Assembly: GCA_049970015.1 (NCBI GenBank)
Contig: JBMFNT010000002.1
Coordinates: forward strand, 1 to 58,116
Source of the DNA: Candidatus Micrarchaeia archaeon
Lineage (GTDB): Archaea; Micrarchaeota; Micrarchaeia; CAILAH01
DNA: 58,116 bases
Direction: 5' to 3'
Under the pieces are notes generated by a model. That model saw nothing but the letters and a program-made list of their open reading frames with translations. It ran no database searches and was not told the DNA's origin. Made by a program: the position numbers and the translations under genes. Positions 28,354 to 47,410 of the stretch are shown here, in pieces (the stretch's first letter is position 1; each line of letters opens with the position of its first letter).

Positions 28354-29790
28354 ATGACAAATATAAAATTGCTCAATAACCCAATGGGTACACCTACATA
28401 TGTGGAGTTTTGTTATTCTAAGGATAAAAAGCCAGTCTTGGAAGGCAGTCTGAAAAAGTATTCTGAGAATGCAACAGCAAAGGGTTTTGGGGCATCCCTT
28501 GGAGAATATTTTATAGTTAACGATGGGCTTATTTTAGTTGGTCTAGGTGAAAAAGGCAATTTTAAACCGCGTTTTATAAGAAAAGCAATCTTTTCCGCGC
28601 TCGGGTTTGTGAAGGCGCTTCGGATTGCCACGGTTGCCTTGATGTTAAAGCAGTTTGATGAGATTATTACTAAGAATGCCGTTTACTCCGCATACATGAC
28701 CGAGTATGAGTTTGATAAGTTTAGATCAAAAGAGGAGAAGAAGGAAAAAGGAAAGTTGGAACAAGTTCAACTGATTATTGATGAGAAGTTTAATCAGGCT
28801 ATGCGCGAGGTTGTTGAAGTATCTGAATCGATAAATTATGCACGTACTATTTGTAATACCCCTGCAAATGTGGCCTCCCCGCAATACATGGCAGAAGAGG
28901 CAAGAAAGCTTGCCAAGGAATGTTTATTGAAATGCTCAGTCTTAACAAAGAAAGATATGGAAAAGAAAGGGATGAACGCATTGCTTGCAGTTGCAGCTGG
29001 AAGCGCACGCGAGCCGGTGATGCCAATACTTGAATACTCTGCAAAGAACGCAAAGAAAACAATTGTTGTGGTTGGAAAAGGAATTACATTTGATAGTGGT
29101 GGTATCTCACTAAAGCCCAGTAAGGGTATGGATGAAATGAAGTTTGATAAGAGCGGTGCATGTGCAGTTCTTGGAATAATGCGCGCAGTATCAAAACTCA
29201 GACCAAACGTTAATGTAGTAGGGGTGCTTCCGTGCACAGATAACATGCCAAGCGGTTCTGCAACACGTCCTGGAGATATTGTAAAAGCATACAATGGAAA
29301 GACTATCGAGATACTTAACACTGATGCTGAAGGAAGGCTCATACTTGCAGATGCGATTGCGTATGCGGAGGATAAGTATAAGCCAGATTACATAATAGAT
29401 CTTGCAACGTTGACAGGTGCATGCATTGTTGCCCTAGGTGTTTATGCAATGGGTATGCTTTCAAACGATGACTCGTTTGCAAATACCTTTAAGGAAGCAA
29501 GCAACGCGAGCTTTGATGAACTGTGGCAGTTACCACTTTGGGATGAGTACAAAGATATGATGAAGAGTAAGGTTGCAGATATAAAGAATATATCAGATAC
29601 TGGCGAGGCAGGTACAATAACCGGTGCAGCGTTTATATCAAACTTTGTTTCAAAAGCAAAATGGGTGCACCTTGATATTGCAGGTACGGCACATAGATCA
29701 AAACCAGTGCCTCCATTCGATCACGGGGCCAGTGGTTCTGGCATATCAGTAGTAATAGAAGCAATAAAGATGATTGAAAAGGTAAAATAA
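28354..29790 (+). CDS. pepA: Leucyl aminopeptidase (M17)
   Basis: VGKGITFDSGG and NTDAEGRLILAD. The start could be 28339 instead. Confidence 0.9.
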   Translation: MTNIKLLNNPMGTPTYVEFCYSKDKKPVLEGSLKKYSENATAKGFGASLGEYFIVNDGLILVGLGEKGNFKPRFIRKAIFSALGFVKALRIATVALMLKQFDEIITKNAVYSAYMTEYEFDKFRSKEEKKEKGKLEQVQLIIDEKFNQAMREVVEVSESINYARTICNTPANVASPQYMAEEARKLAKECLLKCSVLTKKDMEKKGMNALLAVAAGSAREPVMPILEYSAKNAKKTIVVVGKGITFDSGGISLKPSKGMDEMKFDKSGACAVLGIMRAVSKLRPNVNVVGVLPCTDNMPSGSATRPGDIVKAYNGKTIEILNTDAEGRLILADAIAYAEDKYKPDYIIDLATLTGACIVALGVYAMGMLSNDDSFANTFKEASNASFDELWQLPLWDEYKDMMKSKVADIKNISDTGEAGTITGAAFISNFVSKAKWVHLDIAGTAHRSKPVPPFDHGASGSGISVVIEAIKMIEKVK

Positions 29791-29807: not shown

Positions 29808-30057
29808 GAGCGGCAAGCAGTAGTCTGCCTTCTGTTTTCAGCAGCATTTGTCTTAGCGCCATAATGGCTTGCACGTTCATTGCCTATAAGGATGGCCGTT
29901 TCATCCAGCGCATGCAGATGTCAGTTTTCTTCATTCCTTTTAGCAAGGCCGGTATCGTTTCTGTTCCGTCCTCTCCTATTACAGGAATATAGGCTCAGCG
30001 TGGGCAGAACTTCCTCAGCGCACCTTTTCTTTCTTGGGAAGAAAGAAAAGCTGCACC
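29808..30057 (-). ncRNA. rnpB: RNase P RNA, catalytic core (the 5' end may lie at ~30367; see findings)
   Basis: On the minus strand, in the canonical order: GAGGAAGUUCUGCCC (rc of 30002-30016, CR-I), ACAGAAACGAUACCGGCC (29947-29964), GGAUGAAACGGCC (29894-29906), and ACAGAAGGCAGACUAC (29820-29835). AGUUCUGCC pairs with GGCAGACU leaving one bulged U, which is the geometry of helix P4. Confidence 0.7.
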
Positions 30058-30357
30058 AAAAGAAAGAACCTCTTCTTTTTGAGAAGAGTTGCACCGAAAA
30101 GAACCTCTTCTTTTTTAAGAAGAGCTGCACCAAAAGAAAGAACCTCTTCTTTTTGAGAAGAGTTGCACCGAAAAGAACCTCTTCTTTTTGAGAAGAGCTG
30201 CATCAAAAGAACCTCTTCTCTTAGTGCAAACTTCTTTTTTTAGAAGAGTTGCACCAAAAGAACCTCTTCTTTTTGAGAAGAGCTGTATCAAAAGAACCTC
30301 TTCTCTTAGTGCAAACTTCTTTCTTCTCTCAAGGAGAGGTGCACCGTCAGCTGCACG
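30018..30357 (-). repeat. Tandem array of ~9 hairpin modules (about 34 nt each, two of ~50 nt)
   Basis: The plus-strand unit is gaaccTCTTCTttttgAGAAGAg(t/c)tgcacc followed by an (g)aaaa spacer. Unit starts are about 30066, 30101, 30140, 30175, 30209, 30260 and 30294, plus the perfect 11-bp hairpin at 30025-30049. Higher-order repeats are 30051-30123 versus 30124-30196 and ~30197-30281 versus 30282-30345. Confidence 0.9.
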
Positions 30358-30388
30358 CCTGCCGCTCATTATAATTTTGATTGATATG

Positions 30389-30396
30389 TATAAATA
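30389..30396. promoter_or_regulatory. Shared near-palindromic TATA box (tataaata) between the MFS gene and the putative RNase P RNA 5' end
   Basis: The centre (30392.5) is 25.5 nt from the MFS ATG (30418) and 25.5 nt from 30367. Confidence 0.45.
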
Positions 30397-30417
30397 GTTT
30401 TTGTATTATATTACCTT

Positions 30418-31581
30418 ATGAGTTCCGATAAGATAGGTAAAAAAAGCGATGGCAAAAAAAGCGTTATACTCCTTAGCATTACAAGTTTTATAAATGATGT
30501 AAGCAGTGAGATGATTCTTCCTATATTGCCATTTTTTCTTGCATCATTTGGTATTACTCCAGTATTCATAGGCCTTGTTGGTGGCGTGAGGGATTCTTTA
30601 TCAAGCTTGCTAAAAGTGTTCTCTGGATATCTTTCTGACAGGATTGGCAAGAGAATGCCTTTCATTTATACTGGTTATTTCATATCTTCAGTATTCAAAG
30701 TGCTGCTTGCATTTTCTCCAACATGGCTGTTTGCCATCATATTTTCATCGCTTGAGAGGATTGGAAAGGGAGTGAGAGATGCTCCTCGTGATGCACTTAT
30801 AGGAAGTCTTATGCCGGAAAGAACAGGGGAAGGGTTTGGGATACAACGCTCGCTCGATACTGCAGGTGCATTTATTGGTACAATTCTCATAATACTACTC
30901 TTTTACTACTTTGGCTTTGAACTGTTTTCAATAATACTGCTTGCAGGGTTTATAGGCCTTCTTTCACTTATCCCACTCTTGTTTGTTAGGGAGGAAAAAT
31001 ACGACAAGGTCACAAGAGGGATGTTTTTTTCAATAAAGAATATTCCGAAAGAGGCAAAAATGCTTATATTGGTGGCATCAGTGTTTACCTTAGCAAATTT
31101 CAGTTATATGTTTTTTATTATGAAAGCGCAGGTCGAAACCGGAAGTCTTATTTATCCTGTGCTCTTGTACCTGTTGTATAACTTATTTTATGCACTCTCC
31201 GCATACCCTTTGGGAACGTTTGCTGACATAATCGGCAAGAAAAAGACCCTGGCTTTGGGTTATTTCATGTTTTCATTTGTCATGTTTGGCATGATATATG
31301 CACATGATATTTTCTCACTTACAGTATTGTTTGTTTTGTATGGTATATCTGTGGGAATAGTTGAAACAATCCATAAAGCATATGTATATGACCTCTCTAG
31401 CAAGGATACTAAAGGTGTTTCGGCAGGAGTGTTTCAAGCATCTATTGGCATAATGGCACTTCCTGCAAGCATAATAGCAGGAGGCCTTTGGGAGATTTCC
31501 CCAGGTTATGCTTTTACCCTTGCAGGCATTTTCTCACTGTGTGCATTGATATTTCTTGCATTCATTAATCGGAAACAATAA
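30418..31581 (+). CDS. MFS transporter
   Basis: About 12 hydrophobic helices and an MFS loop motif, GYLSDRIGKR. Confidence 0.8.
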   Translation: MSSDKIGKKSDGKKSVILLSITSFINDVSSEMILPILPFFLASFGITPVFIGLVGGVRDSLSSLLKVFSGYLSDRIGKRMPFIYTGYFISSVFKVLLAFSPTWLFAIIFSSLERIGKGVRDAPRDALIGSLMPERTGEGFGIQRSLDTAGAFIGTILIILLFYYFGFELFSIILLAGFIGLLSLIPLLFVREEKYDKVTRGMFFSIKNIPKEAKMLILVASVFTLANFSYMFFIMKAQVETGSLIYPVLLYLLYNLFYALSAYPLGTFADIIGKKKTLALGYFMFSFVMFGMIYAHDIFSLTVLFVLYGISVGIVETIHKAYVYDLSSKDTKGVSAGVFQASIGIMALPASIIAGGLWEISPGYAFTLAGIFSLCALIFLAFINRKQ

Positions 31582-46470: not shown

Positions 46471-47115
46471 ATGTCCCTTATAGCGGGCATTGATGAGGCT
46501 GGGCGCGGGTCAGTCCTCGGCCCGCTTTCCATTGCACTTGTTTGTGGTAATGAAGATGATTTTTTATCTATTGAGCTTACGGATTCTAAGCTCCTCACAC
46601 GCAAGGAGCGCGAATCACTTTACCCTGAAATAAGGAAGAAGTTTTACACATCTTTTATTCTTATAACTGCGAATGAGCTTAATGAGCTTATGAGAAGGTT
46701 TTCGCTCAATGAAATAGAGGCGATGAAGGCAGCATACTTGATTGAAGAGCTTCCGTTAAACCCATCACAGGTTTATGTAGACTCTCCAGACCCAATCGCA
46801 GAAAACTTTGGGCACAGGATTTTGAGGCATATGCAAAAAAATGTTTGTATAAATGCAGAGCATAAGGCAGACTTCAATTATCCTGTTGTGAGTGCAGCAT
46901 CTATAGTTGCAAAGGTTGTTAGGGATTGGGAGATCGACAGGATACGGGATGAACTAGGGTATGATTTTCTTTCTGGTTATCCATCTGATGAATCCACAGT
47001 TCTTGCAGTGAAAGAAATGTTAAGGACGGGCAAAGGAATAGAGTATGTAAGGATGCATTGGAGCACGGTTGAGAACATACTGTCTGAACAGAAGAAGCTG
47101 CATGACTATTTCTAG
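46471..47115 (+). CDS. rnhB: Ribonuclease HII
   Basis: GIDEAGRGSVLGPL, DSK, and SAASIVAK. Confidence 0.92.
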   Translation: MSLIAGIDEAGRGSVLGPLSIALVCGNEDDFLSIELTDSKLLTRKERESLYPEIRKKFYTSFILITANELNELMRRFSLNEIEAMKAAYLIEELPLNPSQVYVDSPDPIAENFGHRILRHMQKNVCINAEHKADFNYPVVSAASIVAKVVRDWEIDRIRDELGYDFLSGYPSDESTVLAVKEMLRTGKGIEYVRMHWSTVENILSEQKKLHDYF

Positions 47116-47139
47116 TTTTTGGTTGATGTTCATTTCCTT

Positions 47140-47410
47140 TCAATTATCCTGTTGTGAGTGCAGCATCTATAGTTGCAAAGGTTGTTAGGGATTGGGAGAT
47201 CGACAGGATACGGGATGAACTAGGGTATGATTTTCTTTCTGGTTATCCATCTGATGAATCCACAGTTCTTGCAGTGAAAGAAATGTTAAGGACGGGCAAA
47301 GGAATAGAGTATGTAAGGATGCATTGGAGCACGGTTGAGAACATACTGTCTGAACAGAAGAAGCTGCATGACTATTTCTAGTTTTCGGTTGATGTTCATT
47401 TCCTTTCAAT
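47140..47410 (+). pseudogene. Tandem duplicate of the rnhB 3' third, the intergenic spacer and the last 15 nt of the convergent DHH gene
   Basis: 47140-47410 repeats 46874-47144 at an offset of 266 nt with one mismatch (t/c near 47118/47384). The junction lies at a shared tcctttcaat. Confidence 0.92.

Follow-up and report, generated by a model that had tools for sequence, protein, structure and literature searches.

[quoted passage not shown]

The stretch of DNA analysed here (the window) comprises 58,116 nucleotides of contig JBMFNT010000002.1 from a Candidatus Micrarchaeia archaeon (assembly GCA_049970015.1). On its minus strand lies a locus that, judged from its sequence, is an archaeal RNase P RNA gene, the product of which is predicted to cleave pre-tRNAs at their 5′ ends. 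The gene order around it is conserved with relatives (NUDIX, transglutaminase, M17 aminopeptidase, RNase P RNA, MFS, glycosyltransferase), and in the syntenic relatives the same slot is filled by an ordinary RNase P RNA. The features of the locus are as follows.

30389-30394, TATA box (TTTATA on the minus strand, TATAAA on the plus strand)
30367-29808 (approximate ends), minus strand, RNase P RNA gene, 560 nt, containing the hairpin array
30357-30367, minus strand, P1 5′ strand GAGCGGCAGGC (RNAduplex with GCUUGCCGCUC, −27.4 kcal/mol)
30350-30354, minus strand, P2 5′ strand GCAGC, followed by UG and then the conserved junction ACG (30347-30345)
30338-30344, minus strand, 5′-most P3 head GUGCACC, candidate basal P3 5′ strand, complementary to GGUGCGC at 30024-30018 (7 pairs, one of them U-G)
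30317-30337, minus strand, diverged 5′-terminal module UCUCCUUGAGAGAAGAAAGAA, containing the hairpin CUCUC-CUU-GAGAG and aligning with the B′+X modules
30058-30316, minus strand, eight tandem modules X1-A1-B′-X2-A2-B1-C-B2, from module parse and repeat detection (the eight lines below give the parse)
30316-30290, minus strand, module X1
30289-30256, minus strand, module A1
30255-30232, minus strand, module B′
30231-30205, minus strand, module X2
30204-30170, minus strand, module A2
30169-30132, minus strand, module B1
30131-30096, minus strand, module C
30095-30058, minus strand, module B2
30205-30289, minus strand, 85-nt higher-order unit A-B′-X, present in the window and in L002 and missing from L001 (the two sister alleles described below); with repeats on either side, its register can be placed in more than one way
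30058-30131, minus strand, 74-nt higher-order unit C-B, found by allele comparison in the window assembly only
30018-30057, minus strand, terminal (innermost) P3 hairpin GGUGCAGC-UUUUCUUUCUU-CCC-AAGAAAGAAAA-GGUGCGC, an 11-bp perfect stem
29808-30017, minus strand, RNase P RNA core, beginning at U30017, defined by the Rfam match and by alignment with 10 relatives
30016-30007, minus strand, CR-I GAGGAAGUUC (together with the P4 5′ strand, 30016-30003)
within 29808-30017, minus strand, motifs ACAGAAACGA and GAUGAAACGG, from the core alignment
29845-29841, minus strand, P2 3′ strand GCUGC, partner of the P2 5′ strand
29835-29828, minus strand, CR-V ACAGAAGG, from the core alignment
29829-29822, minus strand, P4 3′ strand
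29818-29808, minus strand, P1 3′ strand GCUUGCCGCUC, partner of GAGCGGCAGGC

The core matches the Rfam family RNaseP_arch (RF00373) with a score of 60.7 bits (E = 3.7e-16) over positions 29815-30031. This score misses the gathering threshold of 84 bits, and a search at that threshold returned no match, since the model cannot bridge the insertion and the 5′ strands of P1 and P2 stay hidden from it. Among the syntenic relatives, RNAs with a short or moderate P3 reach 90-94 bits, and that with a 115-nt P3 reaches 50.4 bits. The conserved regions CR-I to CR-V are present in the canonical order, and GAGGAAGUUCUGCC, ACAGAAACGA, GAUGAAACGG, AGACAAAUGC and ACAGAAGG are invariant or nearly so in an alignment of 11 sequences. 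Across the same sequences helix P1 is 90.9% paired, with 3 pairs altered on both sides, P2 93.5% (4 such pairs) and the P4 pseudoknot 95.5% (1 such pair). Of 500 shuffles, none came up to the observed P1/P2/P4 covariation score. Pairing in the structure amounts to 85%, as compared with 28-54% when the partners are slid. The 5′ segment matches the family consensus P1-N-P2-NACG-P3 base for base, with P2 directly after P1, and in the minimum free energy (MFE) fold P1 encloses the entire 560-nt molecule (ensemble pairing probability 0.5-1.0).

The molecule thus resembles archaeal type A RNase P RNA (RF00373) in having CR-I, ACAGAAACG, GAUGAAACGG and CR-V in the right order, and likewise P1, P2 and P4 with covariation support. 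It differs in its CR-I, which reads GAGGAAGUUC as in many Micrarchaeota, and above all in P3, which measures some 10-25 nt in the type A RNA and 168-327 nt of tandem hairpin modules here.

The first G of P1 (30367) follows 27 nt after the start of the TATA box; on the plus strand the box ends at 30394, which is 24 nt ahead of the MFS start codon (ATG at 30418). No other TATA box is present, and this one lies between the array and the MFS gene, in a P1-to-ATG interval of only 50 nt. Seven relatives have a TTTAWA/TTAAAT-type box about 27-30 nt upstream of P1, and in all relatives the position of the box follows P1, not CR-I. The box therefore appears to be common to the RNase P RNA gene and the divergent MFS gene, as archaeal promoter architecture would suggest. 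With the TATA box and the 5′ strands of P1 and P2 beyond the array, the array is internal to the transcript; with CR-I immediately downstream, it fills the slot of the 9-115 nt P3 of the relatives. The extra sequence (30337-30058) sits between the P2 5′ strand (30354-30350) and the CR-I/P4 segment (30016-30003), which puts the array within the gene at the site of P3. The original prediction, made from the DNA letters, had taken the minus strand as the RNA sense and the array as part of the RNase P RNA, and both points hold.

Tandem ~35-nt hairpin modules make up the array (30043-30322), arranged in higher-order units of 74 and 85 nt with 95-99% identity between copies. Tandem Repeats Finder (TRF) reports two overlapping arrays, one at 30043-30211 (period 74, 2.3 copies, 95% matches, score 308) and one at 30146-30322 (period 85, 2.1 copies, 95% matches, score 326), each with a ~35-nt sub-period. 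Segments 30043-30115 and 30117-30189 are 99% identical, and 30171-30240 and 30256-30325 are 97% identical. The copies are head-to-tail and highly identical, as in a minisatellite. Units of 73 and 85 nt had been predicted; the latter is right, and the former is 74 nt, owing to an extra A/T in one loop. Blocks 30051-30123 and 30124-30196 are near-identical as claimed (71 of 74 columns, or 72 of 74 in the correct register, 30043-30116 against 30117-30190). For blocks 30197-30281 and 30282-30345 the period-85 relation stands, but the second copy is partial, being near-identical over the first ~41 nt and then diverged (56 of 69 columns).

Modules A, B and C share a layout of head (GGUGCANC or GAURCAGC), CUCUUC strand, A-rich loop, GAAGAG strand and U/C-rich spacer. 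The predicted formula GGUGCA(A/G)C-UCUUCU-loop-GAAGAG-GUUC-UUUU describes B and C correctly, but not A, the head of which is GAU(A/G)CAGC. Modules B′ and X combine into a longer hairpin with GUGCAA paired to UUGCAC. The stem of the 5′-terminal module has one residue fewer per strand than CUCUUC/GAAGAG, with pairing retained. The 5′-terminal, B′+X and terminal modules, though diverged, all still form hairpins. Within-species module copies are near-identical, so that covariation cannot assess the module hairpins, and the closest M17 homologue among 5.8 billion proteins is only 61% identical, leaving no sister species for such a test.

The array folds with z = −6.0 in the sense strand, which is 17 kcal/mol better than the antisense strand. 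The stem of the terminal hairpin has a pairing probability of 0.68-1.0 in all three alleles, and this hairpin is homologous to the polyY/polyR P3 helices of three relatives (L124, L127 and L132). At the other end, GUGCACC directly follows ACG, the same place as the P3 5′ strand in all relatives. When the domain is folded in isolation, the GUGCACC/GGUGCGC closure is the MFE structure in both shorter alleles, but in the longest it is 4.4 kcal/mol less favourable; the penalty against local closure of the terminal hairpin ranges from 0 to 4.4 kcal/mol. In the full-length thermodynamic ensemble, global P3 closure and P2 have probabilities near 0 and local terminal-hairpin closure is preferred. Given this preference, the array may sit within P3 or in the P2/P3 junction.

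Several other identities were considered for the array. Unique spacers are absent, which rules out a CRISPR, and a protein-coding repeat is ruled out by indels of 85 and 74 nt, which are not multiples of three and shift the frame; the ORFs called over the array in the three assemblies (71, 124 and 84 aa) gave no match in a Pfam search. Parts of the array match miRNA, PyrR and sRNA families of Rfam far under the gathering scores, and these were set aside as chance hairpin matches. K-turn or C/D-box-like features (UGAUGC, CUGA) were sought by eye in the array, and none was convincing.

As for the origin of the modules, the P3 of the syntenic relative L132 contains a single-copy GGUGCAGC-UUUCUUU-loop-GAAAG element. 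The same GGUGCAGC-plus-polypyrimidine element there shows that the modules are copies of P3 material, and they derive from the ancestral P3 element with head GGUGCAGC, polypyrimidine strand, loop and polypurine strand. The innermost element (30057-30018) adjoins CR-I as predicted, with a single U (30017) in between. The array had been read as iterated copies of the P2/P3 segment of the RNA itself. The P3 part of this reading is supported by the L132 element, but not the P2 part: the true P2 5′ strand is next to P1, ahead of the entire array in the RNA, and shows covariation with the 3′ strand it pairs with. GCAGC in the module heads is the same pentamer as the P2 5′ strand, but lies outside the P2 position.

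The module sequence is confined to this lineage in the searches made. With at most 2 mismatches, GAAGAGGTTCTTTT occurs at 7 sites in the 58-kb window, all within the array (0.67 expected). Among 129 loci (L001-L129), only four matched the modules, all from two sister assemblies; JGI metagenomes and viral contigs gave 0 matches, and phages and plasmids none. With no copy outside the array in the window or the databases searched, the modules do not behave as a dispersed or mobile (MITE-like) repeat. The original prediction had also left room for a purely selfish minisatellite; since no other copy was found anywhere searched, this may then be one confined to a tolerant helix of one gene. Exact-protein look-ups with the 478-aa M17 protein and with MFS returned the two sister assemblies only, and those with the 483-aa M17 ORF and the glycosyltransferase returned nothing. 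A scan of genome contigs gave, among the matches listed, a closest RNA core about 71% identical and neither the species nor a close relative, and a scan with the family CR-I pattern gave two loci only. RNAalifold on ~75-100 nt P3 extensions of four other Micrarchaeota yielded a poor alignment and no usable consensus. A literature search on RNase P RNA in Micrarchaeota found nothing.

We have compared the alleles of the window assembly and of two sister assemblies (GCA_049972225.1 and GCA_049699455.1; loci L001 and L002), all of them short-read MAG contigs. The P3 domain measures 168 nt in L001, 253 nt in L002 and 327 nt in the window, the steps being exactly one 85-nt and one 74-nt unit, and in this order the alleles read X-A-B, X-A-B′-X-A-B and X-A-B′-X-A-B-C-B; the corresponding RNAs would be 401, 486 and 560 nt long. 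The copy number has probably changed recently and by whole higher-order units. The recent unit-pair amplification that had been predicted is thereby supported, with copies 95-99% identical and assemblies differing by exactly +85 and +74 nt.

It is possible, if doubtful on balance, that these differences, and perhaps the largest allele too, are products of assembly and that the true array length is fixed. The three sequences all come from MAG contigs, skipping one cycle of a repeat graph would turn the longest allele into the shorter ones, contigs of this species break within the other hairpin array described below, and two perfect tandem duplications (217 nt ×2 and 266 nt ×2) lie elsewhere in the window. 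However, an array of at least three modules is found in three of three independent assemblies, contigs without module C traverse it unbroken, and the 217-nt duplication is found in a sister assembly as well. Module C (GGUGCAGCUCUUCUUAAAAAAGAAGAGGUUCUUUUC) and a G/A difference in module A2 occur in the window assembly only, and a mere duplicated read-through therefore does not account for the extra unit. The flanks differ by 0.2-0.8% SNPs, which indicates that the alleles come from different strains and the assemblies from different populations.

P3 is a hot spot of size change in Micrarchaeota RNase P RNA. Its length among the syntenic relatives is 9, 20, 21, 24, 64, 74 or 115 nt, the shortest being the nearly absent P3 of L125. 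Measured from the P1 start, CR-I lies 33-52 nt away in about 40 Micrarchaeota, 63-123 nt in 7 and 193, 278 and 352 nt in the three assemblies of the array species.

Taken together, these data make a lineage-specific expansion of P3 in the RNase P RNA of this Candidatus Micrarchaeia (DPANN) archaeon the probable explanation of the array. Slippage during replication, or unequal recombination, between the ~35-nt hairpin modules would have enlarged the array, which would be transcribed and retained as part of the RNase P RNA. It may fold into a long irregular rod with GUGCACC/GGUGCGC as its closing helix, or into a row of hairpins beside a locally closed terminal P3 hairpin. In either form the array would point away from the catalytic core and be tolerated like an rRNA expansion segment, while the P2/P3 junction, which binds Pop5/Rpp30 in other archaea, would keep its family consensus sequence. 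The data can be explained in this way without a specific function for the extra hairpins, and the apparently variable copy number argues for weak constraint on the array. In M. jannaschii the P2-P3 region touches Pop5 and Rpp30 and is located where the dimer halves meet (PMC6565675). An extra 300 nt at that face might do harm, which would count against its being tolerated.

A functional add-on seems unlikely: a multivalent platform for protein or RNA, a means of altering holoenzyme assembly or dimerisation at the P2-P3 face, or polypyrimidine-polypurine triple helices formed via the U/C-rich spacers. The enlarged P3 of eukaryotes is a protein-binding domain, and P3 enlargement recurs independently in seven other Micrarchaeota lineages (63-123 nt from P1 to CR-I; 64, 74 and 115 nt for P3 in the family). 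Every diverged module is still hairpin-forming, but polyY/polyR composition makes hairpins almost automatic. The spacer UUCUUUCUUUU mirrors the terminal stem strand UUUUCUUUCUU, an arrangement suited to a Y*R-Y triplex; the mirror repeat is, however, a trivial consequence of (CUUU)n periodicity, and the triple helix was set aside. The apparent two-fold difference in copy number between strains, the lack of a counterpart of the module sequence in any other lineage searched and the failure to recognise a K-turn-like or other known protein-binding motif likewise count against such a function.

The window holds a second hairpin-repeat array in the 5′ half of a tRNA(CGC), the locus of which continues beyond window position 1. 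This array begins precisely behind tRNA position 37, where archaeal introns canonically lie, and may be a giant intron or the mark of a split tRNA. We consider it quite unlikely that hairpin-repeat arrays are a general trait of the structured-RNA genes of this Micrarchaeon, as two unrelated arrays in one window could suggest. If they were, and if one pathway (excision or an organising protein) handled both, the essential RNAs of a genome-reduced archaeon would carry a new class of intervening or expansion element made of repeats, with the RNase P case caught while growing.

A functional tRNA would require its array to be spliced out or bridged, and an intervening sequence has been weighed for RNase P as well, where the array would be removed or cleaved after transcription, leaving a short mature RNA or two pieces joined by P1, P2 and the P3 base. 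This is improbable. A relaxed bulge-helix-bulge (BHB)-like structure can be drawn at the P3 base, CG|GUG|CACC|UC with GA|AAA|GGUG|CG, and L125 would function with almost no P3. However, a strict BHB motif is absent there, the relaxed one has outer helices of 2 bp and competes with a continuous 7-bp helix, and splicing at it would remove P3 entirely. With 170 relaxed BHB hits as compared with 60 in shuffles, a surplus due to the polyR/polyY sequence, one well-placed hit is weak evidence; the RNase P and tRNA arrays also have no common sequence. Finally, the suggestion of a protein-binding or termination array, an MFS regulator or another DNA-level or 5′-leader element of a divergent promoter is hardly credible, for although the array lies between two protein-coding genes and its hairpins with following U-runs look superficially terminator-like, the only TATA box, on the MFS side, and the covariation-supported P1/P2 5′ strands lie beyond it, the core lies 3′ of it, and an ordinary RNase P RNA occupies the slot in syntenic relatives.

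For the preferred reading, a lineage-specific P3 expansion, the closest precedents are the cyanobacterial STRR repeats and the giant yeast RPR1. STRR (short tandemly repeated repetitive) sequences in the RNase P RNA gene of heterocyst-forming cyanobacteria were reportedly described by Vioque in 1997 (Nucleic Acids Res 25:3471, cited in PMC2858038). Their repeat content is reported to vary between strains. There, as here, a peripheral helix encoded by the RNase P RNA gene holds tandem repeats, but the host is a bacterium and the helix is P12 of the specificity domain, rather than P3 of the catalytic domain in an archaeon. The STRR units are heptamers dispersed genome-wide, whereas the present ones are ~35-nt hairpins from the helix itself, with no copies elsewhere in the searches. 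P12 is dispensable in cyanobacteria (PMC2858038). The RPR1 RNA measures 1149 nt in C. glabrata and 1368 nt in N. delphensis, as compared with 369 nt in S. cerevisiae (PMC3001073; PMC3847288). In the nuclear RPR1 of Candida glabrata/Nakaseomyces the core is conserved and peripheral insertions inflate the RNA several-fold, as here, in a eukaryotic instead of an archaeal host. To our knowledge, those insertions have not been reported as tandem arrays of one module, and we know of no strain-level variation in their copy number.

The eukaryotic RNase P/MRP P3 helix-loop-helix is a conserved protein-binding module (Pop6/Pop7). The same helix is elaborated in both cases, conserved there and a variable repeat array with no partner protein indicated here. 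In rRNA expansion segments, as in the eukaryotic P3, an essential RNA keeps its core unchanged and enlarges a helix at its periphery, and the array follows the same general logic.

The P3 expansion would be a case of an essential ribozyme in which one of its own helices is duplicated in tandem to yield an expansion segment, with the intermediates visible as strain-level alleles. It would offer a rare view of how peripheral RNA domains such as the eukaryotic P3 and rRNA expansion segments may arise, and it is surprising for a small-genome DPANN archaeon, where RNAs are usually expected to shrink. In public MAG annotations the gene is missed at the Rfam gathering score and covered by spurious hypothetical ORFs, and an RNase P RNA recorded as absent in surveys of such lineages may reflect P3 insertions. 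The natural P3 series from 9 to 327 nt is a ready test of tolerance at the Pop5/Rpp30/dimerisation face known from M. jannaschii.

In the fold predicted for minus-strand positions 30375 to 29800, P1 is formed by GAGCGGCAGGC (30367-30357) pairing with GCUUGCCGCUC (29818-29808), and this helix encloses the entire 560-nt stretch, the array of hairpin modules included. Against the Rfam archaeal RNase P model, minus-strand positions 29815-30031 score 60.7 bits (E = 3.7e-16), and since this lies below the RNaseP_arch gathering score of 84 bits, the default scan of the window returned nothing.

Features of the RNase P RNA locus and its array
28354-29790, M17 leucyl aminopeptidase gene, flanking the RNase P RNA gene
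30418-31581, MFS transporter gene on the other flank, divergent from the RNase P RNA
30394-30389, minus, TTTATA box, starting 27 nt upstream of the first G of P1
30344-30338, minus, 5'-most head GUGCACC, directly after ACG
after GUGCACC and before the eight modules, minus, diverged module with hairpin CUCUC-CUU-GAGAG
30057-30018, minus, terminal hairpin GGUGCAGC-UUUUCUUUCUU-CCC-AAGAAAGAAAA-GGUGCGC at the end of the array, followed by U and then CR-I
30043-30211, period-74 array, 2.3 copies, 95% matches (Tandem Repeats Finder)
30146-30322, period-85 array, 2.1 copies, 95% matches (Tandem Repeats Finder)

In a public source the M17 aminopeptidase is assigned to a Candidatus Micrarchaeia archaeon MAG. 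On the opposite strand, the same TATA box lies 24 nt upstream of the MFS ATG. The 50-nt interval between the two genes (30368-30417) holds one symmetric TATA element (30389-30394), with 22 nt from one end to P1 and 24 nt from the other to the MFS ATG, a spacing that points to a promoter acting in both directions and to an MFS mRNA without a leader.

The position of the array was checked by covariation in an alignment of 11 sequences, in which trimming was confined to the apices of long P3 domains. Of the named structure (P1, P2, P4 and the P3 base), 85.3% is paired, compared with 28-54% when the partners are slid, and the observed covariation score was reached by none of 500 shuffles. Across the same sequences P1 is 90.9% paired with three pairs changed on both sides, P2 93.5% with four, and P4 95.5%; the window has compensatory changes of its own (A-U in P1 for the relatives' U-A, and G-C/A-U swaps in P2). 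Between lineages the P3 columns lack homology and hence are uninformative. The 5' strands of P1 and P2 thus lie at 30367-30350, upstream of the array, and the array fills the P3 slot. A promoter or terminator array, left open by the original prediction, is therefore rejected, since the TATA box and these 5' strands precede the array, which lies inside the RNase P RNA.

Family-level relatives, found by protein-guided look-ups (M17 55-61% identical), share the gene order NUDIX, transglutaminase, M17, RNase P RNA, MFS, glycosyltransferase; two further loci came from metagenomes by a CR-I pattern scan. Their 5' parts match the window base for base (TATA, ~27-30 nt, GAGCGG.. of P1, N, G.GCAGCU. of P2, ACG, P3), and their P3 domains of 9, 20, 21, 24, 64, 74 and 115 nt are each predicted to fold as a closed hairpin. 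Three relatives with a short or moderate P3 pass the Rfam gathering score (90-94 bits), and the one with 115 nt falls below it at 50.4 bits, like the window. The low score of the window is therefore due to the insertion and does not mark a pseudogene. One further relative, L126 (Logan SRR8371833 contig; M17 60% identical), ends 81 nt past M17, at the expected RNase P RNA site; no RNase P core was found in its remaining sequence, and a repeat at that point may have broken the contig.

A pattern scan with one genome per species gave at least about 80 Micrarchaeota RNase P RNA loci, and P1 was located in about 50 of them by duplex prediction against the 3' tail. Among the matches listed, about 40 loci have 33-52 nt between the start of P1 and CR-I and seven have 63-123 nt, against 193, 278 and 352 nt in this species' three assemblies. 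The 63-123 nt distances imply enlarged P3 domains in those lineages, so P3 enlargement is recurrent in the phylum. The seven are L063, L123, L038, L107, L077, L073 and L054, one of them a Candidatus Bilamarchaeum MAG. Four look related to one another 5' of CR-I (GGUUUUGGU...ACUGACA.AAxU), and RNAalifold gave no usable consensus for the P3 extensions of these four.

Modules of the array in RNA sense
X, 27 nt, GUUUGCAC-UAAGAGAAGAG-GUUCUUUU
A, 34-35 nt, GAU(A/G)CAGC-UCUUCUC-AAAAA-GAAGAG-GUUCUUUU
B', 24 nt, truncated, forming a longer hairpin with the next X via GUGCAA/UUGCAC
B, 38 nt
C, 36 nt

Module order in the three assemblies of the species
L001 (sister assembly): X A B
L002 (sister assembly): X A B' X A B
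window (eight modules): X A B' X A B C B

The repeat that had been noticed by eye is confirmed. On the plus strand, ~30043-30322 form a tandem array over a ~35-nt sub-period with copies 97-99% identical, and the 14-mer of the module core occurs seven times in the 58-kb window (0.67 expected), always inside the array. The first of two block pairs proposed earlier is a real repeat with a period of 74 nt instead of 73 (72 of 74 columns identical in the right register; one loop of the unit carries an extra base). The second is indeed an 85-nt repeat, with near-identity holding only to ~41 nt, past which its partial second copy diverges.

As to origin, the P3 of the relative L132, GUGCCUUUCUUU-GGUGCAGC-UUUCUUU-A-GAAAGCUG...CACC-AAAAGAAAGGUAC, holds the same head and the same polypyrimidine, loop and polypurine element in single copy, within a polyY/polyR basal helix, and the relatives L124 and L127 also have GUG(G/C)CUUUCU / AGAAAG.. 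basal helices. These elements support the view that the array repeats the P3 element of its own RNA. The share once assigned to P2 is dropped: the P2 position beside P1 holds its own GCAGC copy matching the family consensus, and the GCAGC of the module heads shares the sequence of the P2 5' strand but not its position. The original interpretation was largely right.

The locus is carried by two other public assemblies of the species, with flanks 99.2-99.8% identical to the window and array lengths stepping by exactly +85 and +74 nt. Only the window has module C and a G/A difference in its second A module. Such unit-wise differences fit unequal recombination or slippage between modules; they also fit cycle-skipping in a de Bruijn graph. 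On balance, the polymorphism is probably real.

GGUGCGC (30024-30018) has two competing predicted partners. Closure with the 5'-most GUGCACC would place the array inside P3 and keep the canonical P2/P3 junction; closure with the neighbouring head GUGCAGC would close the terminal hairpin locally and leave the array in that junction. For the domain folded alone, the energy gap between them is 0.7, 0.8 and 4.4 kcal/mol in the three alleles, and a global rod-like fold is the predicted MFE for the two shorter ones; local closure dominates the predicted full-length ensemble. The choice matters structurally, because Pop5 of M. jannaschii is placed on the P2/P3 junction, with Rpp30 touching P2-P3 at the dimer interface (PMC6565675).

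Taken together, the most likely reading, which we hold with reasonable confidence, is a recent and perhaps ongoing growth of P3 through tandem duplication, with the added sequence kept in the RNase P RNA and tolerated. A specific function of the array is unlikely. The array's sense strand is predicted to fold at -123.8 kcal/mol (z = -6.0) and its antisense strand at -106.4 kcal/mol (z = -4.4), and stem pairing is kept in all three divergent hairpins (5'-terminal, B'+X and terminal) despite sequence differences, which is weak evidence for selection given the polypyrimidine/polypurine context; the remaining copies are near-identical, leaving no room for covariation. Removal of the array after transcription, as an excised intron, is improbable, since a strict BHB motif was not found; one relaxed motif lies at the P3 base, amid a high background. 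No further copies were found elsewhere in the window, or in JGI metagenomes, viral contigs, phage/plasmid collections and the other fetched loci, which speaks against a dispersed or mobile element, and protein coding is rejected because indels shift the frame and the ORFs over the array (71, 124 and 84 aa) lack a Pfam match.

The window holds other repeats. A truncated hit to the Rfam tRNA model (18 bits, E = 0.06; anticodon CGC) aligns minus-strand 277-241 with model positions 1-37 and stops precisely at 37/38, the canonical intron site. From there to the contig end run GC-rich hairpin repeats, at least 240 nt in length (period ~73 nt, 2.6 copies, 71% matches), with units unrelated in sequence to the RNase P array; a sister assembly's contig likewise stops within this array, which would mark a split tRNA or else be a giant tRNA intron built of repeats. 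A 217-nt tandem duplication (1538-1964, two copies, 100% matches) covers the purF 3' end and recurs in a sister assembly, so it is not unique to the window; another of 266 nt lies at 46873-47410 (two copies, 99% matches). Neither length is divisible by three.

Tandem repeats inside an RNase P RNA gene recall the STRR heptamers in P12 of heterocyst-forming cyanobacteria, where P12 is reported dispensable (Vioque 1997, as cited in PMC2858038), and an oversized RNA with a conserved core recalls Candida glabrata (1149 nt, PMC3001073) and other Nakaseomyces (1368 nt, PMC3847288). In contrast to these cases, the host here is an archaeon, the helix affected is P3 of the catalytic domain, and that helix is itself the source of the hairpin modules that serve as units; strains also appear to carry different alleles. 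Our literature search found no paper on the RNase P RNA of Micrarchaeota. In public MAGs, hypothetical ORFs of 71 and 124 aa are annotated over the array; large P3 insertions leave the annotation of RNase P RNA in DPANN genomes with a blind spot.
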